IMG/VR virus record: IMGVR_UViG_3300044568_003163
Coordinates: 14,879-78,878 of that record
From: a virus
Reading direction: 5' to 3' (one strand)
Length of the DNA stretch: 64,000 nt
Part shown: positions 28,573-49,629 of the stretch, one piece after another
How the letters are laid out: every line of letters begins with the position of its first letter
Numbering within the stretch: the first letter of the stretch is position 1
Program-made: the position numbers and the translations under genes
The notes under the pieces: model-generated
Told to the model about the DNA's origin: nothing
What the model saw: the letters and a program-made list of their open reading frames with translations, nothing else
The model's database searches: none

Positions 28573-30488
28573 TATTGTTTGATTAAATTTACGATGTCAC
28601 CATAAGTAACAATTTTAACTCCTAGCTTTTTAGCTTTTGCAGTTTTAGAAGTAGCAGAATCGATATCGTCAGTAATTAGATATGTTGAATCGGCAGATAA
28701 AGAAGTTTGAACATAACCATGAGGAGCAATTAATTTAACGAATTCCTCTTTAGTTTTAAATCCAAATTCTTTAGGAGAACCAGTCATTTCGAATTTAATT
28801 GAATTAGCATCGATTACTGTTTTAACTTCAGTTTCTATTATATATCCGTTAGCTTTTATCAGGTCGATTAAACGAATTACGGATTGATATTCAGGAGATG
28901 ATTGATTATAGAAAGGTGCATATGCCTCTCTAGATTTTCCTGAGAAATCTGGAGTTCCACCATCGAATAGTTTAGCAATTTGTTCGGATGTAGAGAATCC
29001 TACATTTTTAAAAGCTAATGAAGCAATGATTCGAGGCATTGTAATTGCTTTACGTTTTTCAAATGATTGTAAAATAATTTCTAATGCTCGACCTTTCTTA
29101 AAGTAACCTGACTTAATAAGATTAGCTTCGTTGAATTTTGTTTTGTCGAATAAATCAAACATGGTTTTAATACCTGCATTATAGAGATTTTCAATAGTAG
29201 CACCACCAACATTATCTAATTCGAATGTACCAATTCCTACTGATAATCGACTAATCAATTGTTCTTTACAATTTGGATTTGTACAAAGTAAATGAACACC
29301 ATCAATTTCAATTTTACATTCTAGAGTAGAACATTGAGCAGGTATGTGATCGTTAATGTCTTTAACAAATACTGGAGTGATTACGTGTCTTACGATAGGT
29401 ATAATATCACCTGATTTTACGATTACAACCTTAGCACCAGGAAATAATCCTTTGGTTTGAATATTTCCAAGATTATGTAATGCAACTCTAGAAACAGTAG
29501 TTCCATCTAAATCGATAGGTTCAAGTATACCAACTGGTTTGAATTCACCGGATTGTCCTAAGTTCCATTCGATTCTATTGATATATGTTACTGCTTCGGT
29601 TGGTGGAAATTTGATAGCCATTGCCCATTTAGGGTGATGGTCAGTTTCACCAATTTTGTTTCTTAATTCATGAGGAAATTTAATTACAAAACCATCAAGT
29701 CCATATTCACAATCATGAATTCGGTAATAATGAAACATATTGAAAATAGTTTCGAATTGAGAAGGAAAGAATGTATGAACAAAATCTGGAATAAGAAATC
29801 CATTACGTTTAAGTATTTCGAATTGTTTAGTCCCATGTTCATAAGCATTATTTTCGTGGATTCGATATTCAAAAGCAATAAAATCAAAATCATTGATTAC
29901 GCTTAAGTCTTTAATTTCATCTCGACCTAAGATACCGGCAACAAAGTTACGAGGATTTTTGTAATCCATCGAATATTTTTCGTTGAATAATTTGGTTTTG
30001 ATAATTACTTCACCACGAATTTCGATTAAACCTGGAATGTTGATTTCGTTAGGAACGATATGCATTATTTTAGAAGTAATATCAGTTCCATGAGTTCCAT
30101 TACCTCGAGTAGATGCAGTAATTAGCTTACCGTTTTTGTAAGTTAAGTTACATGAAGAACCATCAAATTTAGGTTCAGCTTCTAATTGTAAAGTTTTTTG
30201 TAATAATGTACCAGCTGAATTTGTAGATTTTTCGATCCAATCGTTGAATTTTTGAATCGGTAAAGATTTATCTTCTAAATCGTTTACTTGTGTTTTTTGT
30301 AAAGATAACATTGGAGATAGGTGCTGATTTTCTTTTGAAGTATCATCAGATCCTACTATGTTGATTACGTTTGAACCTTCAGCTCTTAGTAAATCTTCTA
30401 ATCTATCGAATGCGGTATCGGTCATTAAAGGATTACCATCGTAGTAAGCTTTCTTAGCGTCTAAATAAAGTTTTTCGTTTGTGTTCAT
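28572..30488 (-). CDS. ligA: NAD-dependent DNA ligase
   Basis: 638 aa; adenylation motif EPKFDGSS...TRGNGTHGTDIT; size and domain order of LigA. Confidence 0.85.
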   Translation of the reverse strand: MNTNEKLYLDAKKAYYDGNPLMTDTAFDRLEDLLRAEGSNVINIVGSDDTSKENQHLSPMLSLQKTQVNDLEDKSLPIQKFNDWIEKSTNSAGTLLQKTLQLEAEPKFDGSSCNLTYKNGKLITASTRGNGTHGTDITSKIMHIVPNEINIPGLIEIRGEVIIKTKLFNEKYSMDYKNPRNFVAGILGRDEIKDLSVINDFDFIAFEYRIHENNAYEHGTKQFEILKRNGFLIPDFVHTFFPSQFETIFNMFHYYRIHDCEYGLDGFVIKFPHELRNKIGETDHHPKWAMAIKFPPTEAVTYINRIEWNLGQSGEFKPVGILEPIDLDGTTVSRVALHNLGNIQTKGLFPGAKVVIVKSGDIIPIVRHVITPVFVKDINDHIPAQCSTLECKIEIDGVHLLCTNPNCKEQLISRLSVGIGTFELDNVGGATIENLYNAGIKTMFDLFDKTKFNEANLIKSGYFKKGRALEIILQSFEKRKAITMPRIIASLAFKNVGFSTSEQIAKLFDGGTPDFSGKSREAYAPFYNQSSPEYQSVIRLIDLIKANGYIIETEVKTVIDANSIKFEMTGSPKEFGFKTKEEFVKLIAPHGYVQTSLSADSTYLITDDIDSATSKTAKAKKLGVKIVTYGDIVNLIKQ

Positions 30489-30573
30489 ATCGTTTTTAAT
30501 TATAGAGTAAATTTAATCAATTTTTCCGATACTAGGAAATGTTTTGACAATTATTTACAAAACTTGTTAACAA
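30489..30573 (-). promoter_or_regulatory. intergenic cassette variant (TTGTTAACAA box ... AAATTGATTAAATTTACTCTAT)
   Basis: plus cttgttaacaattact and taaatttaatcaatttttcc; upstream of ligA start. Confidence 0.45.
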
Positions 30574-31017
30574 TTACTCGTTTCTTGCTATGTCTCTTGA
30601 CACATCTCTAGATTTAATTGTTTCTCGTTTATCATATTCTTTTTTACCTTTAGCTAGAAAGATTTCCATTTTGAAAAGTCCTCTTTCATTTTGAAATATT
30701 TTATAAGGTACAATTGAGTGGCCTTTGATGAGGTCCTTTTGTAGCTTTTTAAGTTCTTGTTTTCGCAGCAACAATTTGCGGTTGCAATCCGGTTCGTGAC
30801 TATTAGGCGAATTCTTTGCAACTGGAATATGAAGGCCTCTGACGTAAAGCTCATCATTCTCAAAAATACAATAAGTATCAGTAAGTCCAGCTAATCCTAG
30901 TCGAATAGATTTTACTTCACTGCCTTTTAATTGTATACCTGCAATTTCTGACCTCAATAAGTGATAATCAAATTTAGCTTTTCGATTGATGACGTTTACG
31001 TCTTTGACTTTTTTCAT
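30574..31017 (-). CDS. smpB: SsrA-binding protein SmpB
   Basis: 147 aa; NRKAKFDYHL, GIQLKGSEVKSIR, KRKLLLRKQELKKL, DKRETIKSRDVSRDIARNE match SmpB conserved blocks. Confidence 0.85.
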   Translation of the reverse strand: MKKVKDVNVINRKAKFDYHLLRSEIAGIQLKGSEVKSIRLGLAGLTDTYCIFENDELYVRGLHIPVAKNSPNSHEPDCNRKLLLRKQELKKLQKDLIKGHSIVPYKIFQNERGLFKMEIFLAKGKKEYDKRETIKSRDVSRDIARNE

Positions 31018-31490
31018 TATTTTAAAAATTTTCTAATTGATGAATTTAATCTCTCTAGATGTTCTTCATTTTGCAAACCAGCAAATTTCGTAACATTATC
31101 AGATATAAAAGGAATACAAATCTTTTTATTAAATACTTCTGCACCTATCCATTCAAGAATAGTGTCTAATTGAGTTATTCCTAAAATATTACCAAATGAG
31201 GTATTTGATGTACCTATTAGCAATATGTTGGTTCCTTTAAGTGTTGATGGATATCCGGAATTATCTATCAATTGCTTAAACATATAAGGAAATGATCCGT
31301 TCCATTCAGGAACTATCATAATGATATGTGTGAAATCTTTCATGTTAGGAATATCATCAGTAGCATTTGCTAAAGTAATAATACTTGTCGCACCTTTAAA
31401 TATTTCGTATTGTATGAAAGACTCACAACCTAAGGACAGCTTATAATTTAAGCCGTCCTTTGATGATTGTGTGAGTATGAGTATTTTCAT
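31017..31490 (-). CDS. flavodoxin-like fold protein (NADPH-dependent FMN reductase-like)
   Basis: 157 aa; MKILILTQSS start and alternating beta-alpha pattern. Confidence 0.4.
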   Translation of the reverse strand: MKILILTQSSKDGLNYKLSLGCESFIQYEIFKGATSIITLANATDDIPNMKDFTHIIMIVPEWNGSFPYMFKQLIDNSGYPSTLKGTNILLIGTSNTSFGNILGITQLDTILEWIGAEVFNKKICIPFISDNVTKFAGLQNEEHLERLNSSIRKFLK

Positions 31491-32500
31491 TATTTTTTAT
31501 CAGCACCACCGATGTTCATCATAACGGATTGTCCACTACCCATCATATAAGTAGGTAAGGCACCATCCCATTTTTGAATCCATTCTAATTGAATAATCTT
31601 AGGATTAGTCGAGATAGAGTTACCTTTGATTTGTAACGCTTTAGCTTCACCTTCAGCTTTTTCGATTGCAATGTTTTTATCGATTTGAGCTTGTTTTAAG
31701 GCTTCATCTTTTTGACGAGTAATTTGTACCATTGTAAGTACTTTTTGCTCTTCTAATTTCTTTTGATTAATGGAAGCTTCATATTGTTTGTTGTAGAATA
31801 CCTCTCTAATTTGAGCAACATCAACAATTATACGATTAGCCGCTAATTCTTTTTGTAGAGCTGCTTGCATTTTCGCTTGAATTTCTGCTCTTTTATCAGA
31901 GTAACAATCAATTGGTGTATATCGAGAAACCGTTAATGGCATAATAGATTTGATAGCCGGTCTAATGATATTTTCTTCAATCCAATGATATTTACCGGTA
32001 GCATCATCTGTACCAGAAGAAATATTTGAATAAATCCAAGAAGCTTCTTTAGGATCGATATGCCAGTTAATAGAAACATCGAATCCCATTTTGATACCAT
32101 CAGAGGTTGGAGCCCAAATAGCATCATCAGCCTGTTTAGCACCTTCTCCTTCAGTACCTGATAATGTATATACCCAAACAGTTTTGTCCATCAATTGAAC
32201 TTGATTATAAGGAGCTACTAAGTGCCAACCAGTAGTTAGCTCATCTGGATCTACTCCAGCAGGTGTAACTACAACTCCTACTTCTTGTGCATCAATTTTG
32301 TATAATGTCATAGACAATAATACTGAAACTGCGAAAACGATTGTACTAATTAATAGTGTAAGTTTTCCTGCAGGAAATTGCATGACTTCGTCATAATTTT
32401 TAGGATCAGCCTCATGTTTGGCGTTGATTCTAGATTGGATCGTTCCAATAATTCCATAAATAAGTCCTAATGCGGACGCAATAATTAAAAATGTTAACAT
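31490..32500 (-). CDS. SPFH/band-7 (prohibitin/HflK-like) domain membrane protein
   Basis: 336 aa; N-terminal TM segments, QEVGVVV...AQIREVFYNKQYEASINQKKLEEQ PHB-domain-like, C-terminal coiled coil. Confidence 0.65.
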   Translation of the reverse strand: MLTFLIIASALGLIYGIIGTIQSRINAKHEADPKNYDEVMQFPAGKLTLLISTIVFAVSVLLSMTLYKIDAQEVGVVVTPAGVDPDELTTGWHLVAPYNQVQLMDKTVWVYTLSGTEGEGAKQADDAIWAPTSDGIKMGFDVSINWHIDPKEASWIYSNISSGTDDATGKYHWIEENIIRPAIKSIMPLTVSRYTPIDCYSDKRAEIQAKMQAALQKELAANRIIVDVAQIREVFYNKQYEASINQKKLEEQKVLTMVQITRQKDEALKQAQIDKNIAIEKAEGEAKALQIKGNSISTNPKIIQLEWIQKWDGALPTYMMGSGQSVMMNIGGADKK

Positions 32501-32523
32501 AGTTTTTGTTTAAAGTGTTTGTA

Positions 32524-32973
32524 TTAATATTCAGATTTTAATTGTTCTCTTATTCTAGCCTCGTACTTTTGTTGGTCTTCGACGGCTTTCGCAACTTTTT
32601 GATTGCATGCTTCAATAAATGCCGGATCTAACAGAGCTTCTAGCTTTCTATCAGTGGTTTCCATTACCATTACTGCATAATCTAAAGCAGATTTTAAATC
32701 GTAAAAGGTTTGTAATCCTTGAGGTTCAACATGATTTCCTGCTCTTACTGTAAATTTGTCAGTTTTCCCTGGTCGTTCGATTTGATAAAATATCACATAG
32801 AATTTAGACAATTCTGCTTTGTGGTGAATTTTACCGTAACGAATAAATGTAACATATTTATTATCACACGAATCCATTTGAGTTTCGATCCTCCATTCAG
32901 GTGGTAATTCTGGTTTTAAAATTTCAGCTCTCCAAATAGGTGCTAAATTTGAAATTTCTTTTTCTGTTTTCAT
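32524..32973 (-). CDS. hypothetical protein
   Basis: 149-aa ORF. Confidence 0.5.
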   Translation of the reverse strand: MKTEKEISNLAPIWRAEILKPELPPEWRIETQMDSCDNKYVTFIRYGKIHHKAELSKFYVIFYQIERPGKTDKFTVRAGNHVEPQGLQTFYDLKSALDYAVMVMETTDRKLEALLDPAFIEACNQKVAKAVEDQQKYEARIREQLKSEY

Positions 32974-32982
32974 TTTGTTTGT

Positions 32983-33471
32983 TTAAAAGTTATGGTCTGT
33001 TAATCGAACGTCAAAATCTGTAAAATTTGCAAAGTCCTTTTCATCGGCTTCTAATCTTCGTTCTACTGTATCAGCATCACTTCGTAATGCTAATCTATCT
33101 TTTCGGATATCAAGTGCAATATCGATGTAAATGATGAACGAATTTTTTCGATCAGCTGCATGTAATTTACTAATTCCGGAAGGCGTCATGATAAACACGT
33201 CATCAGTTAAGTGGAATTGTGAATTTGAAGTTCCATAATTCCAACCATTAAATGAAACATGTTCATAGAAGAACTTTTGTTCAATCATCGTTTGGAACTC
33301 ATTATCTTCTAAGAAGTAATAATCTCTGCCATCAACTTCACCATCTCTTGGAGGTCGAGTTGTATAAGAAACTCCATAACGATAACCTCTGCCTTCTAGG
33401 ATTTTTCGCAAATGGTCTTTGCCGGATGCGGCTTTACCGCAAAGTATAATTCTGGATTTTGTACCTGTCAT
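32983..33471 (-). CDS. gmk: guanylate kinase
   Basis: 162 aa; P-loop CGKAASGKDHL and YTTRPPRDGEVDGRDYYF (GMP kinase signature). Confidence 0.8.
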   Translation of the reverse strand: MTGTKSRIILCGKAASGKDHLRKILEGRGYRYGVSYTTRPPRDGEVDGRDYYFLEDNEFQTMIEQKFFYEHVSFNGWNYGTSNSQFHLTDDVFIMTPSGISKLHAADRKNSFIIYIDIALDIRKDRLALRSDADTVERRLEADEKDFANFTDFDVRLTDHNF

Positions 33472-33728
33472 AATAGGTTATTTAATTTTTGTATGTTTTC
33501 CTTTAGAGTTTCTCTCGTTCCTAAATCAAATGCATGCATTTCATCGGTCGACGAACTTTCTAGATGAAGACCTAATTGAAAAGGACTCATCAAATAAAAT
33601 TCACGTTTTTCTTTAGGAATAGATTGGAGATTGATACGGTCTTTGATGCATTGTTCAATTAGATGAAGTTCTTCTAATTGTTCTTCGATGAGCTTTTTAA
33701 TTGCTTCGGATAGTGAACCGTTTTTCAT
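33468..33728 (-). CDS. hypothetical protein
   Basis: 86-aa ORF, 4-bp overlap. Confidence 0.45.
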   Translation of the reverse strand: MKNGSLSEAIKKLIEEQLEELHLIEQCIKDRINLQSIPKEKREFYLMSPFQLGLHLESSSTDEMHAFDLGTRETLKENIQKLNNLL

Positions 33729-33767
33729 ATTGTGTTTTATATTATATGCTGATTTCTAATTTTGTAT

Positions 33768-34049
33768 TTATAAAGATACTGGCATATTGTACATCATCAT
33801 GCAATAGAATTTTAATGCATGAATATTAGTACCATCGGCATTCGCAATAGCACCTTTTAAATCGTTGTTTACGACGGATTGTACGAAAGAACCACCAGCA
33901 TAACCTATTTCATGGCGAGTACAAATAATAGATGTACCTATATTTACAATGTGTTGTTTATCTTCGTTGCTTAAATTTGCAAAGTTAAGAATGTAATTGT
34001 TGGCATATTTATCGAAGTATGCTTGAACTTGTTTTTTGATGTTTTCCAT
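33768..34049 (-). CDS. hypothetical protein
   Basis: 93-aa ORF. Confidence 0.45.
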   Translation of the reverse strand: MENIKKQVQAYFDKYANNYILNFANLSNEDKQHIVNIGTSIICTRHEIGYAGGSFVQSVVNNDLKGAIANADGTNIHALKFYCMMMYNMPVSL

Positions 34050-34051
34050 GA

Positions 34052-34576
34052 TTAAAATATTCTTGAGTTTTCGTTAATATAAGCAGTTGGGTCGTAAGAT
34101 ACAAATTGAATTCTAGCAATATCTTTACAGTGGTTATCTCGAATACCACCAGTATCATGTGAGAATGCTTCGGCTATTTCCATTTCGATTTGTTTGTAGG
34201 TTTCAGGAGTTGCTTTTGATTTGATTACAACTTTTAAACCTTTACCTGAAGGAGTAATAAATGTTGCATGAACATAGTTTAACTTTTCGGCTTTAGCCTT
34301 TAATGTGATTACATCTTCGACATTATCGATATCTAAACAAATTACACCATTGTATTCTTCTAATCCAGCAATTGAACGGTAGTTGAATTGACCGGTTGGC
34401 GTAAATACTGGCAGTTTGTCCTTTTTATGAGATTTTGAAGGATTTTCGTCTTGACGAATTTCTTCGATAATAGATTTGTACTTGTCACTACGAATTTCTT
34501 CGATGATAGTAGATAATGTAGAGACTTCCACCGGTTTGGTGTTTTTGACTGACTTGAAACGTGTGATTTTTAACAT
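34052..34576 (-). CDS. hypothetical protein
   Basis: 174-aa ORF preceded by class-B cassette. Confidence 0.5.
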   Translation of the reverse strand: MLKITRFKSVKNTKPVEVSTLSTIIEEIRSDKYKSIIEEIRQDENPSKSHKKDKLPVFTPTGQFNYRSIAGLEEYNGVICLDIDNVEDVITLKAKAEKLNYVHATFITPSGKGLKVVIKSKATPETYKQIEMEIAEAFSHDTGGIRDNHCKDIARIQFVSYDPTAYINENSRIF

Positions 34577-34584
34577 AAGTTTGT

Positions 34585-34680
34585 TTTAATTAGATAAGTA
34601 AAACTAATCAATTTAGGTGACATATGGAAATGTTTATTGATTTATTTTTTGAAAGTTATTAACAATTTAGTAATTAATCC
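34585..34680 (-). promoter_or_regulatory. intergenic cassette class B (TTGTTAATAAC ... TTTCCATATGTCA ... AAATTGATTAGTTTTACTTATC)
   Basis: three near-identical copies at 34585, 37346, 51587. Confidence 0.5.
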
Positions 34681-34966
34681 AAGTTGTTAATTTTGTAGTA
34701 CCATCTTTCCAAGGCCAGGATTCCATAGCGGCAACCTCATCGCCATTACAGTATTTATGAATCCATAACCATTGTTCCCAATAATCGTCATCACCTAACA
34801 CTGAATAGAAACCAAAACATAACCATTCGATTTTTAACGAAGGCACAGATTCGCATCTAGGAGTATTGAACTTGTCTTTCCATCTTAATGATTGTTTTCG
34901 TACAATAGGAAGCCATGCAAATTCGTAGTTCCAATAAAATTGAGATGTTCTTTTTGGTGATTTCAT
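34667..34966 (-). CDS. hypothetical Trp-rich protein
   Basis: 99-aa ORF. Confidence 0.45.
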   Translation of the reverse strand: MKSPKRTSQFYWNYEFAWLPIVRKQSLRWKDKFNTPRCESVPSLKIEWLCFGFYSVLGDDDYWEQWLWIHKYCNGDEVAAMESWPWKDGTTKLTTWINY

Positions 34967-35184
34967 TATCTTTCAAGTATTACAAATGAACCAAAATAAC
35001 CATCAAAAACCTGCAATAGATTTTCATAATCTCCTGACATCATTTCGTTTATAATTTTTTCTTTGTCTAATCCTAGTTGCTTAGCGAAATTAGAAGCATA
35101 ACCCATTAGAGCAAATGCATTTCCATCAGGTCCAGTTAAGTCAATAACAATAGGTCCAGTTTTTTCTTTTTTCTCTCGTATCAT
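34966..35184 (-). CDS. hypothetical protein
   Basis: 72-aa ORF. Confidence 0.4.
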   Translation of the reverse strand: MIREKKEKTGPIVIDLTGPDGNAFALMGYASNFAKQLGLDKEKIINEMMSGDYENLLQVFDGYFGSFVILER

Positions 35185-35186
35185 AA

Positions 35187-35393
35187 TTAATTAAAAATGT
35201 AATTGTATAACATAGGTCCGTAAATAATTGCAGATGATATGAATCCGCAAAATGAAATAAATACTGAAGCGACCATAACTAAATCGTCATTCACTCGATC
35301 ATTAGTTTTCCTAAACCAGAATCCAGGATCGTTGTGATATAGTTGATAGCCAATGTTTCCAATCATAAAAATAATCCAAGGTAAGTGTATCAT
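35187..35393 (-). CDS. small membrane protein
   Basis: 68 aa, two hydrophobic helices. Confidence 0.4.
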   Translation of the reverse strand: MIHLPWIIFMIGNIGYQLYHNDPGFWFRKTNDRVNDDLVMVASVFISFCGFISSAIIYGPMLYNYIFN

Positions 35394-35395
35394 AA

Positions 35396-35659
35396 TTAAG
35401 CTTTATAAAAGTTAAGTTCGTAGTTTCCTGAATCCATTCGGTACAAAATGACAGTTAAACATTTTTTAGCAAGATTACCAGTTCGCTTTACTATTAGGTC
35501 CAAATGATAAAATACGGTTTGTCCATATGCTACATGTTCGGTCCATATGTTTTCCGGAAATTTGATTTCGTAATGATTTTCATCAATGATAGATTGATAT
35601 GCATTTTGCAATGCTTCATTTTGAGTAGCGAAATAAGTAGTTGGTTGGTATTTTGACAT
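35396..35659 (-). CDS. hypothetical protein
   Basis: 87-aa ORF. Confidence 0.45.
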   Translation of the reverse strand: MSKYQPTTYFATQNEALQNAYQSIIDENHYEIKFPENIWTEHVAYGQTVFYHLDLIVKRTGNLAKKCLTVILYRMDSGNYELNFYKA

Positions 35660-35671
35660 AATGAATTAGTT

Positions 35672-35750
35672 TAATTTGATATACAAATATAACAAAAAAA
35701 CTCGATATTAAAAAATATCGAGTTAAAAGTTATTAACAAAATAACCAGTA
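35672..35750 (-). promoter_or_regulatory. intergenic cassette class A (terminator for tmRNA + promoter for 35396-35659)
   Basis: minus: TTGTTAATAACTTTTAACTCGATATTTTTTAATATCGAGTTTTTTTGTTATATTTGTATAT. Confidence 0.5.
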
Positions 35751-35751
35751 G

Positions 35752-36126
35752 TGGACCTAGTGGGAATCGAACCCACGTCTTGGAAAGATGTACAATGTAT
35801 TCATTCACAGGCTTAGCAATATTTTCTAACTTTGCAAAATATAAGGTTGGGTTAACACAGTTCCTTACCTTCAACTAACTGAGTGATATTATACTCCTGA
35901 CACTAAGGAGTAATCGCTGTCGAATTTCTGTTCCTGAGTAATCGAGACTCGATTGCTTATGCAGCCATTAAGACTTCACCAGCACCAACGAATGCCATAG
36001 CATCTTCGAAGGTCATTGTTGACTTGTTGTCATTTAAAAAGTTACATAGGTGATTTAAGAGTTTCCGATGCTAACTCTGCCTGCATATCAAAGAACTGGT
36101 CTACCAATCAAAGCCTGGTTAGGCCC
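35752..36126 (-). ncRNA. ssrA: tmRNA (SsrA), 375 nt
   Basis: 5' GGGCCUA pairs 3' UAGGUCC-A (G3:U70 wobble, A73); T-arm GUGGGUUCGAUUCCCAC immediately before acceptor; internal frame ...GCU AUG GCA UUC GUU GGU GCU GGU GAA GUC UUA AUG GCU GCA UAA (tag ending ...VLMAA*); no protein ORF; flanked by terminator hairpins. Confidence 0.7.
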
Positions 36127-36166
36127 ATTAGAACTTCGAGTCTAAATCAATAGACTCGAAATTAAA

Positions 36167-36364
36167 TTAATTAGCTGGTGTAGCAGCTGGAGTAGTTGTA
36201 GGAGTTACAACTTTTAATGAATCAACTTTAGTTGAATCTACTTTTACTGAATCAACTTGAACTGCAGTTGAATCTGTTGAAGTTTCTGTTGTAGCAGTTG
36301 TTTGTTTACAAGATACTACTGTTAATGCAGCAATGATTGCTAGGCTTAAAATTACTTTTTTCAT
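36167..36364 (-). CDS. lipoprotein with VDSxK tandem repeats
   Basis: 65 aa; signal peptide + lipobox LTVVSC; repeats VDSVKVDSTKVDSLKV. Confidence 0.5.
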   Translation of the reverse strand: MKKVILSLAIIAALTVVSCKQTTATTETSTDSTAVQVDSVKVDSTKVDSLKVVTPTTTPAATPAN

Positions 36365-36422
36365 TTCGATTTGTTTTTATATTTATTTAAGTTCTGTCAA
36401 CATCCATGACAGTTTGGATTAA

Positions 36423-36707
36423 TTATTCAGTGATTACTGGTTGGTATTCAAAGGTATCTAAATTCAGGTTGAATTCGCCGTATTTTGCAAATAAGACAGA
36501 TCTAAATTCCTCTTCGTCTAAACGAATTTGCTCGATTTGCTGAGACATTTCTGTAATTTTTTGAATTAGCTCAGTTTTTTCTCCTTCAATTTTATTTACT
36601 TCTTCGCTCATACTTTCAATAAGTTCGAACATTTCTGAATATCTTTTAATAAAGGATTTTAATTTTTCTATCTCGCTAGGAGCAAGTCTTTTTACTTCTT
36701 CTGACAT
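36423..36707 (-). CDS. hypothetical coiled-coil protein
   Basis: 94-aa ORF. Confidence 0.45.
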   Translation of the reverse strand: MSEEVKRLAPSEIEKLKSFIKRYSEMFELIESMSEEVNKIEGEKTELIQKITEMSQQIEQIRLDEEEFRSVLFAKYGEFNLNLDTFEYQPVITE

Positions 36708-36937
36708 TATGATTTTTCTATTTTTTCGAAAGGATATACCTTACTAATTGTTTTATTGAATTCAGCACCTACAGAATCTGACGTTGAAAATTTCACATAA
36801 TCATCTTCAGTTACTCCATCATAACGATACATTGCATCGCCTTTAAAAATTACATAAAGTGATTGTGATTTAAAATCATAACTTGAAGATTCGATTGTAG
36901 ATGAATCATAAGTAACATTTTCGGTAGTTTTTCTCAT
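36707..36937 (-). CDS. KTSC-domain-like protein
   Basis: 76 aa; SLYVIFKGDAMYRYDGVTEDDYVKFSTSDSVGAEFNKTI resembles KTSC domain pattern. Confidence 0.4.
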   Translation of the reverse strand: MRKTTENVTYDSSTIESSSYDFKSQSLYVIFKGDAMYRYDGVTEDDYVKFSTSDSVGAEFNKTISKVYPFEKIEKS

Positions 36938-36952
36938 GTTTATTATATGTTA

Positions 36953-37219
36953 TTAGTTAGTTCTAGAATCAAATTTAAACTTAATTCCATTTGAAATTCC
37001 AAAAGATTTTCGATTTCCTAAATGGTGAAGTTTTTGTGCAGTTTCTTGGTCAACAATTTCTATTTGCGAGTATTCGTTTTTCCCTGAAATTATTGTGTGA
37101 CAGGCTACAGCCTTTGTATCTGAACATTTAACACAGGTAGTAGTAAAAGGTAGAATTTCTACTCGCTTAGGATGGATTTGTTCGCCACATCCTTTGCAAT
37201 ATTTCGTAGTTTCGCTCAT
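36953..37219 (-). CDS. TraR/DksA-family C4 zinc-finger protein
   Basis: 88 aa; CKGCGEQI...TTCVKCS Cys4 ribbon. Confidence 0.55.
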   Translation of the reverse strand: MSETTKYCKGCGEQIHPKRVEILPFTTTCVKCSDTKAVACHTIISGKNEYSQIEIVDQETAQKLHHLGNRKSFGISNGIKFKFDSRTN

Positions 37220-37494: not shown

Positions 37495-40476
37495 ATGCCA
37501 ACAGCAAATTACCCTAATAATCAAGATTATCGTTTAAATAAGACTCGTCCTCTTACATGGAAAGAAATGGACGATATGTTCAGAAAACCAAATATTTGGA
37601 TTGGAGATTTTAGTTACGTTCAAGGAATGGTCGTGATGTGGGATGATTCAGTTCCACCAGTTAATAATGGAGATGATGGAACTTTATCTTTTTGGTTATG
37701 TGATTCCGATCACGTATCTTCCAATACTAATACTCCAGGAATATTAAATAGTCCATGGAGAAGAATAGGTGGATTAAGTGTTCCAGGACCTACAGGAGAA
37801 TCGGGTGGTCCTATAGGACCTACTGGAATGACCGGTGCTACTGGTAGAACTGGAATGACAGGTGCAACAGGTTCTACTGGAATGACTGGTGCGGTTGGAC
37901 AAACTGGTGCTACTGGACAAACTGGAATGACTGGTGCTGTTGGACCTACCGGAGTTGGTTTACCCGGATCTAAAGGTGATACTGGAAATATTGGTGCTAC
38001 AGGAATGACTGGGTTAGTAGGACCAACTGGAGCAGGAGTAACTGGTGCTACTGGACAAACTGGACAAACTGGACCTACCGGTTTCAACGGACAAACTGGT
38101 CCTACAGGAATGACTGGTGCAGGAGAAACCGGTGCTACAGGAATGACAGGAATGACAGGTGCTACTGGAATGACAGGACCTATAGGACCTACTGGTGCAA
38201 ATGGAATCCCGATGGGTAAACCATCTGATGCATTAGATATGTATTACGATGATGATCCGTCTTCACAAGGTTGTAATCCTGGTGATCCGCTCAAACTATC
38301 GTTTGATGTAGTACGAACTGGAGTTACTTCACTTGCATATGTAGTAGATAATTCCGGTATTTCGACTGCAGGAGGTACAAAAATATTAATACAAAAAGAA
38401 GGAAATTATTTTATATCGGTAAATGTTAATATAAAAATTCTAACTCCGGTCGACGGTAGAGCCGAAGTTTCTTTAAATTTATATTATGATGATACCTCTG
38501 GAAGCTATACTAAATTCGACGGATTTCAAGGAAATGTTATATTAGATGCAGAAGGTTTAACTCCAACTGGAACATTAAAAGATTCTATTATGATTCAAGG
38601 AATTTTTAATGTAGATGCTAGTTGGATTTCTTCAAACAGAAAAATATATGCCGTATTAGAAAATGCTGCAGCAGGAATTTCTCTTTCATCCATCGTCGTA
38701 TCACCTATTTCTACTTCATTATCTATCATCTCGTTAGAAGGTGGAATTGGTGCTACTGGAGCAGGAGTTGCTGGACAAACTGGTGCTACTGGTATGACTG
38801 GATTAGTTGGACCAACTGGAGCAGGTCAAACTGGTGCTACTGGACAAACTGGTGCTACCGGAGAAACTGGAATGACAGGTGCTACTGGAATGACTGGTCC
38901 TACTGGTGCTGGACAAACTGGTGCTACCGGAATGACTGGTCCTACTGGTCTAGGGTACGATCTTACTTCTTCAATATCTGCTACTGCTGGATTAGGGGTA
39001 AAAGTTTTTACCGTAAATAAAGATGCATCTCTTTCTGCATTTTCCATTGGAAACCGAGTAAGAGTAAGTTCATCTTTCGTAATTTGGATGGAGGGAGAGA
39101 TAACATCATATGCAGGAAATACCTTAATTGTGAATGTTGATAAAGTAGTTGGTAGTGGTGCTTCTGCGAGTAGTTGGGATATCGACATTGCTGGACTTCC
39201 TGGACCTACTGGAATGACTGGAATGACTGGTGCTACTGGAAGAACTGGTAGTACAGGAATGACTGGTGCTACTGGAAGAACTGGTAGTACAGGAATGACT
39301 GGAGCTCAAGGTCCTATCGGACCAGCAGGACCATTTGGTGCTACTGGTATGACTGGATTAGTTGGACCAACTGGATCAGGCACTACATTTATTCATGAAA
39401 CTGCTACTTTCGTAGATCCTAACGGTAGCAACAGTACTGGTGCAGTAGGAGATAAACAAAAACCATTTTTGACGATAGAAGAAGCAATAGGTCAAGCTCG
39501 TTCACGAGCAAACGAACAAGGCGGACCATTTACTATCATCGTATATCCGGGTATTTATGAGGAAAACAAGCAATGGAATTTTGAAAACGACGAAGGAACT
39601 ATTAAATTTATCGGTCAAGTTTATATAGAATTTGATAACCCAAACCCGGTAGATTATTTTATCAAAATGAGTAATTCGTATATTAATTTCGTTGGAGATG
39701 ACCGAGGGACGAATAATTTCCAAATTGGCGGTACTTGTAATACTGGAACATATTTAACCATATCTAGTAAATTCGGTACTAATGTGTATTTATTCGATGT
39801 TCGAAATACTAAACTTAAACTATCAAATATTACAATAGATACAGGATTTTTAGGAAAATTTGGAGTAGATTGGAAATACCCCGGTGGTGGTAGTAAAGTA
39901 GATATTGATAATTGTAGAATGAGATCTATTATACATCCTAATATCGAGGTTTCTGCCGACGGCGCAGTTGATGGTCTTTCTAGATTACCAGATATATTAA
40001 TTAGAGATTCAATTCTAGCATCGGCTTTTGGACCTAATATTGGATATTATGCATTTACTAATGGTTTAGAATCTGAAGCTACTTTATTGATTGATAATAG
40101 CACAATCTATCAAGATCCTACCTATGGAGGTTTAGGTAAATTAACACCTGGATTTCCAACTCCAGTAGGAGGAAAATTACCTCACGTAGACAGTTTCATA
40201 TATTCAACGATGAATCTGGATAACCAATTAAGGTTGATATTTTCTGGGACGAAATTCCATATGAACAAATGGTCTCCACCAGCAGAAGGAAGTGGTGGAC
40301 CTGAAGCTTGCGTACATTTTGATAATTCTGGAAATGATTTCAAACATGACACGATGTCAACTTACACTAATACTCGAAATTTTTTAGGAGCCAGCATCTG
40401 GACTCATGTAGTTGACCATATAACGGAGTTAAAAGGTAGTACGAAATCTCCAATTGAATATATGAACATACTTTAA
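37495..40476 (+). CDS. collagen-like tail fibre/tailspike paralog with beta-helix-like C-terminal domain
   Basis: 993 aa; N-terminus [29 protein letters not shown] homologous to 13017-15977; multiple Gly-X-Thr runs; C-terminal region with repetitive short beta-strand motifs (possible pectate-lyase-like fold). Confidence 0.8.
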
Positions 40477-42658: not shown

Positions 42659-43768
42659 TTATTTAGAACCAAATCCGATAGTTTTTCTATCGACTTGCAT
42701 TTCTGAATAAACCTCTTCTTGATTATATACTTCTGATACGGTCATTGGTTTATCGATTGTAGTGTTTTTACCTAAATGGTCAGATAACTTTTGAGCAGCT
42801 TTTTGGTCTAGCTTTTTAAATTCATGTTTTAAGATTAGACGACCTTTACGCAATAGAGCTTCATCGATAGTAGTAATGTCACTGTTGAACGTACAGATAA
42901 TTTGAGTACCTAAGAAGTCTGATATAATTCCATCTGATAGATTTAGCAGTTTATCTACAGTTGCACCACCTTGTTTACGAGATTTAATAGCTTCTTCTGC
43001 ATCTTCGATAATCAAAACTGAATTTGGGAAATCTGCCATTAGTGGTAAAAATCCAGGATCAGTTAATGAATTGATTAGTTGATTAGGTAGATAAATCATC
43101 GTTCTCGTTTCAGCTAACAAGGAAATCAGATATCGAATGTACATAGATTTTCCTGTTCCAGGGAGTCCATGTAAAAGAGCAATTCCTTTTTTGTTTTCTC
43201 GAGAAAGAGATTCCATTAAGTAATCATGTTTAGTAGCCCATTCTTCACCATAATTCATTTCGATATCTAATTCGGGAATGTTGATGTCAAACGATCTTAA
43301 ATCTAAGCCACCATCATCTTGAATCACCATATACACTTTAGTTTTATCTACTTTGTATACTTGCATTTTCATTATATCTTTAATGAATTTTTGTGCAAGT
43401 TCTGCTTTATCAAGCGACCAGTAAAATTCAACTTCTAAGGTATATTCTTTCTTAGTTTCTAAATTGTATTTCACGTAAACAACTAAGTCCTTATCGCCGG
43501 TCTTTAATTTACCTCTAACATTTTTAGGAGCCATTAACTCTTTTTTGTTTTTGAATTTGTAATTGGCTGAAAAAACTTCAAAGTTTTCGTTGAACCATTT
43601 ATCCCATTTACGTTTTGGGATTACGATTCCATTTTCACTCCATTCGCTAGGACAAACATCATTATGCATCCACCAAAAGATGTCTTGATGATTGTAAGCT
43701 TGCGTAGTTTCTAGAGTTTTAATGTGTTCAGATGGATTCATATTTTCTTTTCTTTTTATATGCAACAA
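42659..43768 (-). CDS. AAA+ ATPase with ~190-aa N-terminal domain of unknown function
   Basis: 369 aa; Walker A LLHGLPGTGKS, Walker B LIIEDAEE, SRH ALLRKGRL. Confidence 0.7.
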   Translation of the reverse strand: MLHIKRKENMNPSEHIKTLETTQAYNHQDIFWWMHNDVCPSEWSENGIVIPKRKWDKWFNENFEVFSANYKFKNKKELMAPKNVRGKLKTGDKDLVVYVKYNLETKKEYTLEVEFYWSLDKAELAQKFIKDIMKMQVYKVDKTKVYMVIQDDGGLDLRSFDINIPELDIEMNYGEEWATKHDYLMESLSRENKKGIALLHGLPGTGKSMYIRYLISLLAETRTMIYLPNQLINSLTDPGFLPLMADFPNSVLIIEDAEEAIKSRKQGGATVDKLLNLSDGIISDFLGTQIICTFNSDITTIDEALLRKGRLILKHEFKKLDQKAAQKLSDHLGKNTTIDKPMTVSEVYNQEEVYSEMQVDRKTIGFGSK

Positions 43769-44155: not shown

Positions 44156-44932
44156 TTAAGAATCTTTTTTCATACTTGATAATTTTGAATAAATTCTTTG
44201 TGCAATCATTTTTGTATCAGAAGGCATTTCTGCTTTCTCATATATCCATCTTAAATATTCCTGATCTTCGGCAAATATAGCTTGAACTGTTTTGCCTGAA
44301 TGTTTACCAAAAGTCAAAGTAACTTCACCAGCTTCATTCTTTGCAAACTTACCAGAAAGGTCGAGTTTTTTGTCTAGTCCAGTAGTTTCATTATGAAGGT
44401 GGTCGAATTCAGTTTCATCAAACCACATTTCCATTTGTTTGAAAAATATGCCAGCAGTTGCAGTTACATCAGCTTCTGCACTATGTGCATTTTGCAAATC
44501 AATTCCTAAGAAACGATTAACTGCGCCTTTAAGGTTACGGGTTTCATATTGAGTCCAGATTCTATATGAATCTAAAATTCTGCGCTTTCTATAATCAAAA
44601 AGCTTTTTAGCTCTCAAAAATTCCTCGAATATTAAAGGAATATCATAATGCAAAATGTTATAGCCACCTAAATCAGAATCACCTAAAAATTCTAAAATCG
44701 AATCGGCAATATCTGCAAATGTAGGAGAGTCCTTAACATCTTCGTTTGTAATTCCATGAACAGCCGAAACTTCTTCTGAAATATTAATGGTTGGATTTAC
44801 TAAAGAATAGAATTTGTCAGTAGTTCCATCTGGATTGTACTTAATAATACAAATCTCGACGATTCGATCTTTTGTTGTGCTCAATCCTGTGGTTTCCACA
44901 TCAAAGAACGATATTGGCTTTTGTAATGTCAT
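44156..44932 (-). CDS. DnaQ-like 3'-5' exonuclease (DEDDh)
   Basis: 258 aa; FDVETTGL (Exo I), HSAEADVTAT (Exo III). Confidence 0.7.
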   Translation of the reverse strand: MTLQKPISFFDVETTGLSTTKDRIVEICIIKYNPDGTTDKFYSLVNPTINISEEVSAVHGITNEDVKDSPTFADIADSILEFLGDSDLGGYNILHYDIPLIFEEFLRAKKLFDYRKRRILDSYRIWTQYETRNLKGAVNRFLGIDLQNAHSAEADVTATAGIFFKQMEMWFDETEFDHLHNETTGLDKKLDLSGKFAKNEAGEVTLTFGKHSGKTVQAIFAEDQEYLRWIYEKAEMPSDTKMIAQRIYSKLSSMKKDS

Positions 44933-45142: not shown

Positions 45143-45787
45143 TTATTTTGCTTTATGGTGGTCTAATATTGTCATTGGCTCGTTTCTTTCATTTAGGATT
45201 TGCATAATCTCTTCGATATGATATGGCCTAAATTCAGGAGAACCACATATACCTACATCCATTCGTTTACCACCTCCGAAACGATTATCTCCTTTAAGGT
45301 GTTGATGTCCATGTAACATATAAGCACCATAGTGCATTTTGTTCCAACTAATAATTGGATAGTGACATAAAGTAAAGTTAGAAACTTCAGATGCAGCATT
45401 TGTGATTTTTAATTCTTCATAATGCGCAACATGAGAAAATAACTTTCGATACTCACCACCTAATTTATCTCGTTGGATATGATGATCGTGATTTCCTAAA
45501 ATAAGAACAATGTTATGACAGTTAATTTTCTTACGAAGTTCTTTAACTTCAGCTTCACCACCAAAAGACCAATCACCTAAATGAATCAACCAATCTTTAG
45601 CACCTACATTATCGTTGATGTTTTTAATCATTGCCTCATTCATTTCTGTAGTAGTATCAAAGTCTCTAACGCTATCAATAGGAACATTACCATCGAAATC
45701 TCGCCAGTTAGTTTCACCTCTAACAATATTAGAATGTGAGAAGTGAGTATCTGCAGTTATCCAGATATTTTTAGCCGTTAGTTTCAT
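45143..45787 (-). CDS. calcineurin-like metallophosphoesterase
   Basis: 214 aa; ADTHF, GDWSFGG, GNHDHH motifs. Confidence 0.7.
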   Translation of the reverse strand: MKLTAKNIWITADTHFSHSNIVRGETNWRDFDGNVPIDSVRDFDTTTEMNEAMIKNINDNVGAKDWLIHLGDWSFGGEAEVKELRKKINCHNIVLILGNHDHHIQRDKLGGEYRKLFSHVAHYEELKITNAASEVSNFTLCHYPIISWNKMHYGAYMLHGHQHLKGDNRFGGGKRMDVGICGSPEFRPYHIEEIMQILNERNEPMTILDHHKAK

Positions 45788-46385
45788 TTAAGTATTTTAG
45801 TATTTGTTCTTTGATTCCTAATTGTTTTATGCCTTCGGTAGATTTTGGTGTGAGTACAAAATTCGATAAACCCCAAACTCTGGTAAAATTAACAGACCAC
45901 CTCATAACTTCGATTGCCATATCTAAATCATCAACAGCTACCCAATGAGTTACTTCAGGATGGTCTTTCAAGTATTGCATAATTTCTAAAGAACGTTCTT
46001 GCTCGTATTGTTGATGACGATCCCATTCAAATCCTTCAGGCTTTTCACAACCTATAAATGAAGGTGTAAATGCAATAGGTGCTTTTGAAATTCCTTGTGC
46101 CAAGTAATATGAACTCAATTCTTCTAGATTTGCATGTTTCTTCCAATCTGAAGAAACTACAATTTCAGCACCGGTTTCAGCTAATATTTGATTTAATACC
46201 TTTACCGCTTTTTTATCAAAATCGTCAAAACGATATTCAATAGGAGCAGTCTTATACATTCGATCCCATTCAGGATTTGACTTAAGGTATTTTTTCATTT
46301 TATTAGCTCTGCCACCCCAATTGTTGGAAAGACAAATTACACCGTCGTTATCTAAAAATATTACTTTCATAATAGTTATATGCAA
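45771..46385 (-). CDS. HAD-like hydrolase (paralog A)
   Basis: 204 aa; MKVIFLDNDGVI motif I; paralog of 46903-47391. Confidence 0.5.
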   Translation of the reverse strand: MHITIMKVIFLDNDGVICLSNNWGGRANKMKKYLKSNPEWDRMYKTAPIEYRFDDFDKKAVKVLNQILAETGAEIVVSSDWKKHANLEELSSYYLAQGISKAPIAFTPSFIGCEKPEGFEWDRHQQYEQERSLEIMQYLKDHPEVTHWVAVDDLDMAIEVMRWSVNFTRVWGLSNFVLTPKSTEGIKQLGIKEQILKYLNETNG

Positions 46386-46902: not shown

Positions 46903-47391
46903 TTATTTTCTGTTTAAAATTCTAATTGCTTTGTTTGTGCATTCATTTGTTAGGCCATAACCTATGTCGATACAATCTGGATGATTGATGTTATTTGAAC
47001 AACAAACAAAATTACCTAATTGACTATCTAACATATCTTCGTCATCATCTAAAATAACATAATTGGTGATTTGATAATATTGGTCTAAGATTGCTTGGAT
47101 CTCATCACCTCGTTGTAACTTTTCACGGAATTCCTCATCTTTTACGTTTCTCCAAAGATCTGGTGTAACTCCGATAAGTTCACCAGCTAATCCTCTCTTT
47201 TCCCACATTGCTTGCATTTTAGCAAGTCCAGCATGTCTCCATGAAGAACTCATTACAATCTTAGCTCCAGTTTCATCTACAATTCGTTTTAGATTGTCCA
47301 TGAAATGTTGATGGAATATTTGACCAAACTCATCGTGACCTTGTCCTATCACGTTAAGCACTCCGTCGATATCAAGAAATATTACTTTCAT
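46903..47391 (-). CDS. HAD-like hydrolase (paralog B)
   Basis: 162 aa; MKVIFLDIDGVL motif I, SSSW motif II. Confidence 0.5.
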   Translation of the reverse strand: MKVIFLDIDGVLNVIGQGHDEFGQIFHQHFMDNLKRIVDETGAKIVMSSSWRHAGLAKMQAMWEKRGLAGELIGVTPDLWRNVKDEEFREKLQRGDEIQAILDQYYQITNYVILDDDEDMLDSQLGNFVCCSNNINHPDCIDIGYGLTNECTNKAIRILNRK

Positions 47392-48533: not shown

Positions 48534-48714
48534 AATAAATAGTTTATTGTTATATGTTTGAAAGAGTAAATATAATCAACATTATCTAAAAATGAAAACT
48601 TTAGAGCATTTAGTTATTAACAAATACAACAAAAGCTCAATCTTACGATTAAGCTTTATCGAAGGTATATTAGGCCATACCAATAACCAGGACCTTTTCC
48701 CTAGGGAAATGTCG

Positions 48715-48797
48715 TGACCAAAGAGGGACTCGAACCCTCACGCTCAAAGAGCACCAGCTTCTTAGACTGGCGTGTCTACCAATTCCACCACTCGGCC
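48715..48797 (-). tRNA. tRNA, class II (long variable arm), Leu-like; anticodon loop CUAAGAA ambiguous
   Basis: T-arm GAGGGTTCGAGTCCCTC, D-arm GTGG-AATTGGTAG-ACAC (Leu-type), acceptor with G:U pairs. Confidence 0.55.
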
Positions 48798-48925
48798 GTA
48801 ATGAGCAATCCTATGGAATTACTGCAGTTTATCCAAAGGTCGTATATAGCTTGCAGACTAAGATTCTGCTGGATTTTCACCTTCATAAAGCTGGATATCA
48901 ACGACCCTTATCGCGATTCTCATTG

Positions 48926-48999
48926 TACCCGAGATGGGACTCGAACCCACACTGTACAGGGTTTAAGTCTGATGCCTCTTCCAATTGGGCTACCCGGGC
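48926..48999 (-). tRNA. tRNA, class-I-like, anticodon loop CUUAAAC (UAA) with weak anticodon stem
   Basis: T-arm GTGGGTTCGAGTCCCAT; paralog of 49276-49348. Confidence 0.45.
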
Positions 49000-49159
49000 A
49001 AATTAAAGAAGTAAGAAAATGAACTCCTTAACAGCTGAACGTTCAATAACTTTAAGAATCATTTTGCTTGTATCTCTAGGATTTGCAACTCCTATAAATT
49101 CACAAAATGCTTTTTGTTTATTCATTATTGTTCATTTCAATTTTGTTATTGCATTATTA

Positions 49160-49240
49160 GGAATAACGATACTATAGGACTCGAACCTATACCTTCCAGC
49201 TCGCTCGCCGGAATTCTACCAAATTAAACTAAATACCAAC
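49160..49240 (-). other. tRNA-like element with canonical T-arm but unresolved cloverleaf (possible pseudogene)
   Basis: ATAGGTTCGAGTCCTAT T-arm; no acceptor pairing found by eye. Confidence 0.25.
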
Positions 49241-49275
49241 CTTTTTATCTCAATAACAAAAGATGTCCTTCTTTG

Positions 49276-49348
49276 TACCTAAGGAGGGATTCGAACCCAC
49301 ACTGTCATGCTCCTAAGGCATGTGCCTCTTCCGTTGGGCTACTTAGGC
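49276..49348 (-). tRNA. tRNA, class-I-like with anticodon UAG (Leu codon CUA)
   Basis: acceptor GCCTAAG/CTTAGGT, anticodon arm CATGC-CTTAGGA-GCATG, T-arm GTGGGTTCGAATCCCTC. Confidence 0.55.
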
Positions 49349-49556
49349 AAATTGGTAAGTGATGGCCTACTTGTTACCATCTGTCTCTGTTTAGTTGCAA
49401 CCACTAATCCTGAATGTAGAGAACTTACCTTTTGTTTTATGTTAGCTAATAAACATTGTTTCTAATGTTATTAACATCATCTTTTTAATTTTTGTACATT
49501 ATAATATACATTAAGCCACAATATGACGTGTTTTGTATATTATAGTGTACATTTTG

Positions 49557-49629
49557 AGCTGACAATCAGGATCGAACTGATGACCTCTTCGATACCAACG
49601 AAGTGTTCTTCCAACTGAACTATGTCTGC
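49557..49629 (-). tRNA. tRNA-Thr (GGU)
   Basis: D GTTC-AGTTGGAA-GAAC, anticodon arm CTTCG-TTGGTAT-CGAAG, T-arm ATCAGTTCGATCCTGAT. Confidence 0.65.

Follow-up and report, generated by a model that had tools for sequence, protein, structure and literature searches.

A phage genome segment carrying a tmRNA gene with a long conserved tag frame and its own smpB gene

Genes for transfer-messenger RNA (tmRNA; ssrA) and for its partner protein SmpB have been reported in huge phages, in a study that used ARAGORN to detect tmRNAs (Al-Shayeb et al. 2020, PMC7162821). In the supplementary GenBank files of that study, an SsrA-binding protein is annotated in at least eight huge-phage genomes, and for five of these the best hits are to Bacteroidetes. 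An earlier survey (Hudson et al. 2014, PMC4131195) met ssrA in no phages other than Bxz1-like mycobacteriophages, Bacillus phage G and DS6A, and among 543 RefSeq bacterial viruses it found not one with smpB. Here we describe a tmRNA–SmpB pair in a stretch of 64,000 nt from the virus record IMGVR_UViG_3300044568_003163 (positions 14,879 to 78,878 of that record; the whole stretch is hereafter called the window). Like the cultured phages of the earlier survey, the window has ssrA; to this it adds smpB, about 4.7 kb away, in a conserved gene block. A preliminary description made from the sequence alone took the presence of a tmRNA and its cognate SmpB in one phage to be unusual. That claim is not borne out by the huge-phage study or by IMG/VR itself, where a profile scan yielded 356 SmpB-encoding stretches and nhmmer found a tmRNA in 18 of 76 newly fetched SmpB loci (Rfam confirmed six of the seven tested). 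A phage with both partners is therefore of a known kind. Not every phage smpB has ssrA nearby, because Rfam gave no tmRNA within 10 kb of SmpB in eight IMG/VR loci (L001-L004, L010, L012, L016, L017). The pairing itself is thus already known, and the modestly novel part is the long, conserved, phage-specific tag.

The two genes and the parts of the tmRNA lie as follows (window coordinates).

30574-31017, minus strand: smpB, 147 aa, with NRKAKFDY, GSEVKSIR and RKLLL blocks and a GKKEYDKRETIK tail
35752-36126, minus strand: one-piece tmRNA (ssrA) gene; its 375 nt run from G1 through the discriminator A
36120-36126 (5′ strand, GGGCCUA) and 35753-35759 (3′ strand, UAGGUCC), minus strand: acceptor stem with G3:U70, read from the sequence
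36044-36078, minus strand: pseudoknot PK1, tmRNA positions 49-83; stem 1 AGAGUU/AACUCU, stem 2 GCAU-GG/CC-AUGU
35957-36031, minus strand: tag reading frame; GAC at 36031-36029, 24 codons reading DNKSTMTFEDAMAFVGAGEVLMAA, UAA at 35959-35957
35940-35954, minus strand: helix 5-like hairpin AAUCGA-GUC-UCGAUU just after the stop codon, as predicted by RNAfold alone
35816-35842, minus strand: PK4-like 3′-terminal pseudoknot; AUAUUUU/AAAAUAU stem, loop GCAA pairing with UUGC
35760-35776, minus strand: T-arm GUGGG-UUCGAUU-CCCAC, tmRNA positions 351-367

The 147-aa protein, called SmpB in the preliminary description on the strength of its conserved blocks, matches PF01668 with an E value of 4.7e-43 (147 bits against a cut-off of 27) and scores above the cut-offs of the NCBIfam equivalogs TIGR00086 (147.8 against 119.1) and NF003843 (146.6 against 130). 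The protein aligns end to end with solved SmpB structures, among which the best match was 7ljp (E 6.5e-35, SmpB residues 7-143 on 7ljp residues 15-153), and the Thermus SmpB structures 1j1h and 4v8q matched with E 3e-27. The tail of the protein, GKKEYDKRETIKSRDVSRDIARNE, retains an intact GKKEYDKR motif of the GKKxYDKR type: six residues (G124, K125, D129, K130, R131, K135) are the same in each of the 18 aligned SmpBs, K126 and R137 hardly vary, and within the phage clade the pattern AKGKK..DKR..IK.R does not vary. This tail is as long as that of the Bacteroidota SmpB P0097 and about five residues shorter than that of E. coli SmpB. At 33.8% GC, smpB matches the window mean of 34.0%, and the gene is therefore not a recent import.

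The tmRNA gene was matched by Rfam model RF00023 at 35749-36126 on the minus strand (model positions 1-374, 68.2 bits, E 2.1e-24; gathering score 47 bits), in line with its first assignment, and by an nhmmer profile of the family with E 1.9e-89. The tRNA-Ala-like ends were likewise borne out: GGGCCUA pairs with UAGGUCC to give G3:U70, the discriminator is A (A73, at 35752), and a canonical T-arm precedes the acceptor strand. G at position 3 and U at position 70 are kept in all family members while the remaining acceptor positions vary; this conservation is no independent test, because the extraction of family members demanded full acceptor pairing. In the D-loop region the window tmRNA reads GGCUUUGAU, as against GGAUUCGAC in bacterial one-piece tmRNA. 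The 3′ end reads A-CUA, and the absence of an encoded CCA, to which the preliminary description had drawn attention, is real. It is no anomaly: none of the 35 ARAGORN-called tRNA genes of the window encodes CCA, so the end is normal for this genome, and CCA would have to be added post-transcriptionally. Two mechanically called open reading frames (ORFs) overlap the gene (35671-35874, minus strand, 67 aa, with a TTG start; 36016-36153, plus strand, 45 aa); where the preliminary description saw no protein-coding frame, and nothing supports either as a gene.

RNA structure was assessed in an alignment of 22 distinct related tmRNAs (alignment A3). Overall, 94.6% of cells were paired, against 33-50% when partners were slid by 1-3 columns, and two-sided changes were found at 17 pairs; none of 500 shuffles matched the observed values. 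Most of the covariation sits in helix 2a and PK1 stem 1, and helix 2a and the PK1 stems played no part in finding the sequences. Stem 1 of PK1 shows compensatory changes at five of its six pairs with 100% of cells paired, and stem 2 is 91.7% paired. The T-arm, whose pairing was itself an extraction requirement, has two-sided changes in four of five pairs and 100% of cells paired. In the 3′ pseudoknot, the stem-2 strands of 15 distinct relatives pair at 63 of 75 positions; shuffled partners paired at 45.7 +/- 3.5, and 0 of 2000 shuffles reached 63. This pattern of substitution indicates that the RNA structure of the tmRNA is under purifying selection.

The tag reading frame begins with GAC (tmRNA position 96), which the Rfam alignment sets at the position of the consensus resume codon. 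Twelve nucleotides separate it from PK1, and it is preceded by UUAAAU; in every subfamily UAAAU or UAACU is followed by a codon starting with G (GAC, GCU, GGC or GCA). The frame ending in ...AFVGAGEVLMAA-UAA that had been noticed before is real, but only its last 12 residues had been seen, and the full tag has 24 codons. Across relatives, the 12-codon tag core STxTFEDAMxFV has two, one and nine variable sites at the first, second and third codon positions, respectively, and 7 of the 12 codons have only synonymous variants. Because the core varies mostly at third positions and synonymously, the tag peptide, and not the RNA alone, is under purifying selection. We infer that the frame is translated into a peptide with a hydrophobic C terminus (...LMAA). 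We rejected the alternative of an ordinary small ORF that would use the in-frame ATG as its start (MTFEDAM...): relatives replace this ATG by TGG, TTC or TTT, and it is therefore not a start codon.

Related tags are DNKSTMTFEDAMAFVGADEVLMAA, DNELSTMTFEDAMSFVSGEVAMAA and DEKSTFTFEDAMAFVGAEYAVAA, and further DNKSTWTFEDAMSFVGADLAVAA, DNKSTWTFEDAMAFVGGEVAIAA and DNTSTFTFEDAMAFVGGEVAIAA; long tags of sister subfamilies are NGKKSVWDAINSFGTPVTEVEYAYAA, ANNAYDVIANMHNNATPTMVGEVELAMAA, AIEKAFSVIENMFNISTPSKVGEVEYAMAA and ANTYNVEDIMSIPTSLTFKAPVAVIEEAELLVAA. In other phage tmRNA subfamilies the tags have 20-35 residues with alternating hydrophobic residues (for example, NGKKSVWDAINSFGTPVTEVEYAYAA and GNILDKMSAIGLIRAEEVVVA). 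As first proposed, the window tag differs from the ANDENYALAA and GENNYALAA types, and its description as phage-defined is upheld by the conserved peptide with its synonymous changes and by its distribution: when 185,579 species genomes were searched with a degenerate DNA pattern for TFEDAMxFVG, the sole match lay on a 4.5-kb contig from a metagenome-assembled genome (MAG) of an uncultured organism. A degenerate pattern for the tag end GEVLMAA* had no matches in IMG/VR, and no description of the tags of these phage tmRNAs was found in the searchable literature.

The pair lies in a gene block that recurs in at least four further phage lineages, on metagenome contigs found through exact look-ups of SmpB relatives. 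In the window, the order is zf-DksA/TraR, KTSC, two small genes, a small lipoprotein-like gene, a non-coding gap (the tmRNA), small genes and BT4734_N, followed by guanylate kinase, a 144-aa gene, FMN_red, SmpB, NAD-ligase and NUDIX. The syntenic contigs and the gene beside smpB are as follows.

L029, L030: SmpB relative P0003, 63% identical to the window SmpB; tmRNA in the gap, Rfam 52.7 bits at L029:3308-3792
L031: SmpB relative P0010, 56-57% identical; tmRNA in the gap by nhmmer, L031:3644-4102
P0014 contig: SmpB relative P0014, 54-55% identical; the gap only, known from gene layout
L178 (110 kb): SmpB relative P0020, 59-61% identical; tmRNA in the gap by nhmmer, L178:6114-6582
Window 31017-31490, minus strand: FMN_red-like, flavodoxin-fold gene (PF03358, E 4.6e-06), its stop codon overlapping the smpB start

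The tmRNA was thus confirmed in the syntenic gap of L029/L030, L031 and L178. The FMN_red-SmpB order occurs in L029, L030, L031, L033, L177, L178, L179 and the P0014 contig, and in every clade relative examined the FMN_red-like gene lies directly upstream of smpB and overlaps its start. Because gene order is kept while SmpB is only 54-63% identical, the block is old in this phage group and has been retained. These data bear on whether the pair is a mere passenger or an artefact: a recent capture of host DNA, a bacterial contig taken for phage, or a functionless attP-type ssrA fragment. Precedents exist: ssrA is a frequent integration site of temperate phages, which carry its 3′ fragments, and many of the SmpB matches in phage databases are artefacts of prophage edges (for example, Staphylococcus and Acinetobacter records with smpB at the record end). 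Here, however, the tmRNA is full length, the module is syntenic at the SmpB divergence just given, RNA structure and tag peptide are both under selection, smpB matches the phage in GC content, a baseplate gene and other phage genes share the window, and the tag type is missing from the species genomes save for the one 4.5-kb contig. We consider an explanation of this kind highly improbable; on the full-length gene, synteny, selection, GC match and phage genes, the attP-type fragment and bacterial-contig versions of it were rejected.

The intact tmRNA and SmpB and their conserved block make it probable, judging from sequence conservation, that the phage carries its own core trans-translation system. 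The tmRNA precursor would be trimmed by host RNase P and 3′ exonucleases, and the host CCA-adding enzyme would supply CCA, as it would have to for the 35 tRNA genes of the window. Host alanyl-tRNA synthetase (AlaRS) would then charge the tmRNA through G3:U70, and the phage SmpB would bind its tRNA-like domain. With EF-Tu, the tmRNA–SmpB complex would enter ribosomes stalled on broken or stop-less mRNAs; translation would resume at GAC, adding Ala and DNKSTMTFEDAMAFVGAGEVLMAA, and end at UAA, freeing the ribosome. The hydrophobic ...LMAA end, and probably also the internal STxTFEDAMxFVG, would direct the tagged product to a protease. The benefit to the phage would be that ribosomes are kept available when mRNA is cut during phage takeover or by host RNA-targeting defences, a proposal in keeping with other genes of the window, which encode a full set of tRNAs, an S1-like protein, RNA ligase and two HAD domains of RNA repair. 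Phage tmRNA–SmpB pairs would mean that large phages replace, beyond tRNAs and translation factors, the step of ribosome rescue and protein tagging. This lineage offers a clean test case, with a conserved ssrA...smpB block, diverged relatives and a selected tag unlike any cellular tag, and it opens the reader of the tag and the specificity of phage SmpB for phage tmRNA to direct test.

The length and conservation of the tag suggest recognition beyond that of a C-terminal degron. Such recognition has a precedent in Mycoplasma, whose long ssrA tags of more than 20 residues are read by Lon with recognition beyond the C-terminal tripeptide; the window tag shares with these a length above 20 residues and no sequence similarity. 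One extension of the rescue function, which we consider unlikely, is that the phage pair competes with the host tmRNA–SmpB so that stalled products receive the phage tag and a different fate: they could be handed to an adaptor, unfoldase or Lon-type protease of phage or host, be sequestered, or even be shielded from ClpXP, with STxTFEDAMxFVG as a recognition element and not a spacer. It would account for a 24-residue tag whose selected core exceeds the needs of a C-terminal degron, for the 20-35-residue tags with alternating hydrophobic residues of other phage subfamilies, and for the near absence of the tag pattern from cellular genomes (one 4.5-kb MAG contig). It would also be in keeping with the retention in the L178 syntenic block, beside UvdE, of a classical-clade AAA+ ATPase (window 42659-43768, minus strand, 369 aa), a candidate if the tag needs a dedicated unfoldase. 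The matches of this ATPase are weak, however (BCS1 and proteasomal Rpt chains, E ~1e-5), no adaptor or protease gene was found beside the module, and a hydrophobic C terminus ending in AA is an ordinary degron type. Such competition would extend, and not exclude, trans-translation by the phage pair, since ribosome release would still happen. More generally, and tentatively, the long phage tags could form a phage-specific protein-marking code, in which the core STxTFEDAMxFVG is read by a dedicated phage adaptor, unfoldase or protease or by a co-opted host one. This possibility is compatible with the data because the core is selected and essentially absent from cells, and because the tags of other subfamilies are equally long with a similar hydrophobic pattern. 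If true, the phage would not only gain rescue capacity but seize quality control, and so determine what becomes of each truncated protein, its own or the host's, in the infected cell.

The own copy could instead free the phage from hosts that lack, down-regulate or cleave their tmRNA–SmpB, or it could gauge host physiology, a sensing idea raised for huge-phage tmRNAs by Al-Shayeb et al. 2020 (PMC7162821). Some phages require host trans-translation for their development, and the pair occurs together with a complete tRNA set and genes for RNA repair, which looks like a substitution of phage components for those of host translation. Nothing in the sequence bears on sensing, and neither version explains why the tag is conserved and differs from host tags; we regard this explanation as improbable.

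A number of observations weigh against a phage trans-translation system as set out above. ARAGORN, one of the checks proposed in the preliminary description, called 35 tRNAs in the window and no tmRNA. A sigma-70 scan gave no convincing promoter for the tmRNA. Its positions 190-285, the PK2/PK3 region, align poorly to Rfam (posterior 1-4 on a 0-10 scale), the fold there being a predicted one, and its middle domain lacks some 80-100 nt of the length seen in L029 and L031. The tag would act as a degron only if a protease reads it, and it might be no degron. Finally, the Bacteroidota host (see below) is one that we infer, and the composite Bacteroidetes promoter (-33/-7) TTG-N19-TAnnTTTG is not enriched in the window, with 2 found against 1.9 expected.

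The ARAGORN result can be compared with its performance on a set of bacterial-type and phage-family tmRNAs, in which it found 10 of 10 of the former against 16 of 32 of the latter; the phage tmRNAs that it did call were given truncated tags (ADLAVAA, EVEYAYAA) or the wrong frame. Because ARAGORN misses about half of the family, phage tmRNAs are probably under-counted in surveys that rely on it, the huge-phage study included. The family itself was surveyed with an 18-mer from the 3′ strand of helix 2, which retrieved 38 IMG/VR and 103 metagenome loci; of these, the family profile recognized about 65 as full-length tmRNAs. Several of the tmRNAs lie on viral contigs between 110 and 348 kb long, such as the 348-kb IMGVR_UViG_3300027770_000025. 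The tmRNA of L108, which like L029 came from a lake, differs from that of the window by 2 nt. A 25-mer of T-arm plus acceptor had a single match in IMG/VR (L028), comprising the 3′ 30 nt only and lying near the contig end.

The 18-mer loci also included about 70 AT-rich phage-like loci among L035-L175 (L054, L140, L064, L036, L042, L151 and L063 are examples) that combine the helix-2 18-mer with a ...UCUCCA end. Their T-arm is non-canonical, for example ACGAUG-GGCAGUA-CAUCGU or CCGGU-UUCGUC-ACCGG in place of GGUUCGAAUCC, and the family profile matched only their 3′ 70 nt. These may be tmRNAs with a remodelled tRNA-like domain.

Set against bacterial one-piece tmRNA, the window gene shares the G3:U70/A73 acceptor, the T-arm, helix 2, PK1, a resume codon about 12 nt past PK1, a tag ending in AA followed by UAA and the 3′ pseudoknot, and its SmpB shares the core blocks and the GKKxYDKR tail. 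It differs in being phage-encoded, in its 24-codon tag (about 10 codons in bacteria) with a conserved internal core essentially missing from cellular genomes, in resuming on Asp (GAC), in its short middle domain and in being invisible to ARAGORN. With huge phages the window has in common a big tRNA set, an S1-like protein and other translation genes, tmRNA and SmpB included. Its SmpB is 39-50% identical to the SmpBs of the phage collection, and 39-47% identical to those of Lak megaphage and the LR7565xx genomes.

SmpB and tmRNA stand side by side on other contigs of 29 kb to 369 kb. In L026 (369 kb), smpB is directly followed by a permuted tmRNA. A GOLLD group of IMG/VR contigs (L204, L223, L228, L236, L252) carries a tRNA array, a GOLLD RNA, SmpB and a convergent tmRNA. 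Compared with the window, this group has another gene order, with the tmRNA 0.1-0.9 kb from smpB, and other tag families, of 20-21 residues; Rfam gave no GOLLD match in the window. The GOLLD RNA (RF02032, 285-327 bits) lies upstream of smpB, at a distance of at most ~100 nt in L219, L228 and L236 and of 1-3 kb in L204, L223 and L252, at the following positions.

L204:8455-8880, GOLLD RNA
L219:9515-9920, GOLLD RNA
L223:8609-9014, GOLLD RNA
L228:9495-9908, GOLLD RNA
L236:9510-9921, GOLLD RNA
L252:6863-7276, GOLLD RNA

The tRNA array lies upstream in these loci, and the convergent tmRNA just downstream in five of the six (in L219 by nhmmer only). A weaker GOLLD match (212 bits) at L027:12860-13278 follows smpB by about 2.5 kb, and no tmRNA was found at L027. 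We know of no earlier description of this block of tRNAs, GOLLD RNA, SmpB and tmRNA.

The tmRNA gene of the window is flanked by two hairpins.

35699-35724, minus strand: hairpin resembling an intrinsic terminator (stem of 11 bp followed by a T run), 27 nt beyond the tmRNA 3′ end
36135-36159, minus strand: hairpin UCGAGUCUA...UAGACUCGA, ending 8 nt before the tmRNA 5′ end

The second of these could terminate transcription of the lipoprotein-like gene upstream or serve as a signal for processing; at the equivalent place, L029 and L178 show a hairpin that differs in sequence. In L108, about 1.6 kb (L108:2175-3800) are inserted directly after the tmRNA 3′ end. This insert contains a GIY-YIG-like ORF (222 aa; PF01541, E 2e-4, just below the cut-off) and a 337-aa ORF, and looks like a homing-endonuclease insertion. 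A gene of 528-539 aa occupies the same spot after the tmRNA in L031 and the P0014 contig.

The window derives from a large, tRNA-rich tailed phage whose host is most likely a Bacteroidota species, probably of freshwater. All of its large ORFs but one lie on one strand, a baseplate spike/hub protein is encoded at 4419-5288 (phrog_37871, phrog_430, PF04717), and there is a block of nucleotide-metabolism genes. The 35 ARAGORN-called tRNA genes, at 48.7-56.4 kb, cover all 20 amino acids, and Rfam adds three tRNA matches. The S1-like protein (2783-3946, minus strand, 387 aa) matches NCBIfam S1 models with E 5e-49, far below the equivalog cut-offs, and the resemblance covers most of its length. S1 binds tmRNA in E. 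coli, and its carriage is known in huge phages. Relatives lie on IMG/VR viral contigs of 110-348 kb; among deposited phages (50,697 records), neither megablast of 30000-37000 nor blastn of the tmRNA gave a match. As to the host, the nearest taxon-named cellular SmpB is P0097, from a Bacteroidota MAG, at 55-59% identity; its gene has a chromosomal context, with DNA polymerase III tau/gamma and topoisomerase I. For ten SmpB matches, cluster listings gave as taxonomy no more than 'Bacteroidota bacterium', for P0097. The window also encodes a protein with a BT4734-like N-terminal domain, and the motif TTATATTTGTATATCAAATTAA, which contains TAnnTTTG, the Bacteroidetes -7 box, stands some 25 nt ahead of start codons both here and in L029.

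Some further features of the window were noted. The tRNA array (48714-56390) is entirely on the minus strand, with further coordinates at 49166-49238, 50726-50822 and 58630-58740. One ARAGORN tRNA has a 4-base anticodon (agcg), and two further Rfam tRNAs of 97 and 111 nt may contain introns or long inserts. Around the array lie genes for RNA repair or processing, namely an RNA ligase, two domains of the HAD_SAK_2 ('Swiss Army Knife RNA repair') type, two metallophosphoesterases and two DEDD/RNase T-like exonucleases, a set that fits defence of translation against RNA-cutting systems.

57227-58543, 45771-46385, 46903-47391, 45143-45787, 59073-59939, 44156-44932 and 60591-61193: RNA repair/processing set

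Two proteins of about 990 aa (13017-15977, minus strand; 37495-40476, plus strand) contain long collagen-like G-x-x repeats (GATGMTG...) and are probably fibre proteins; the second is the sole large plus-strand ORF. Finally, copies of a motif TTATATTTGTATATCA(A/T)(A/T)TTAA lie 20-25 nt ahead of start codons, in many cases directly behind a terminator hairpin. The motif contains the -7 box TAnnTTTG of Bacteroidetes and probably represents a class of phage promoter.

Window 35668-35689, minus strand: TTATATTTGTATATCA motif
Window 63146-63167, minus strand: TTATATTTGTATATCA motif
Window 63450-63471, minus strand: TTATATTTGTATATCA motif
L029:1755, 3925, 4489 and 7642: TTATATTTGTATATCA motif

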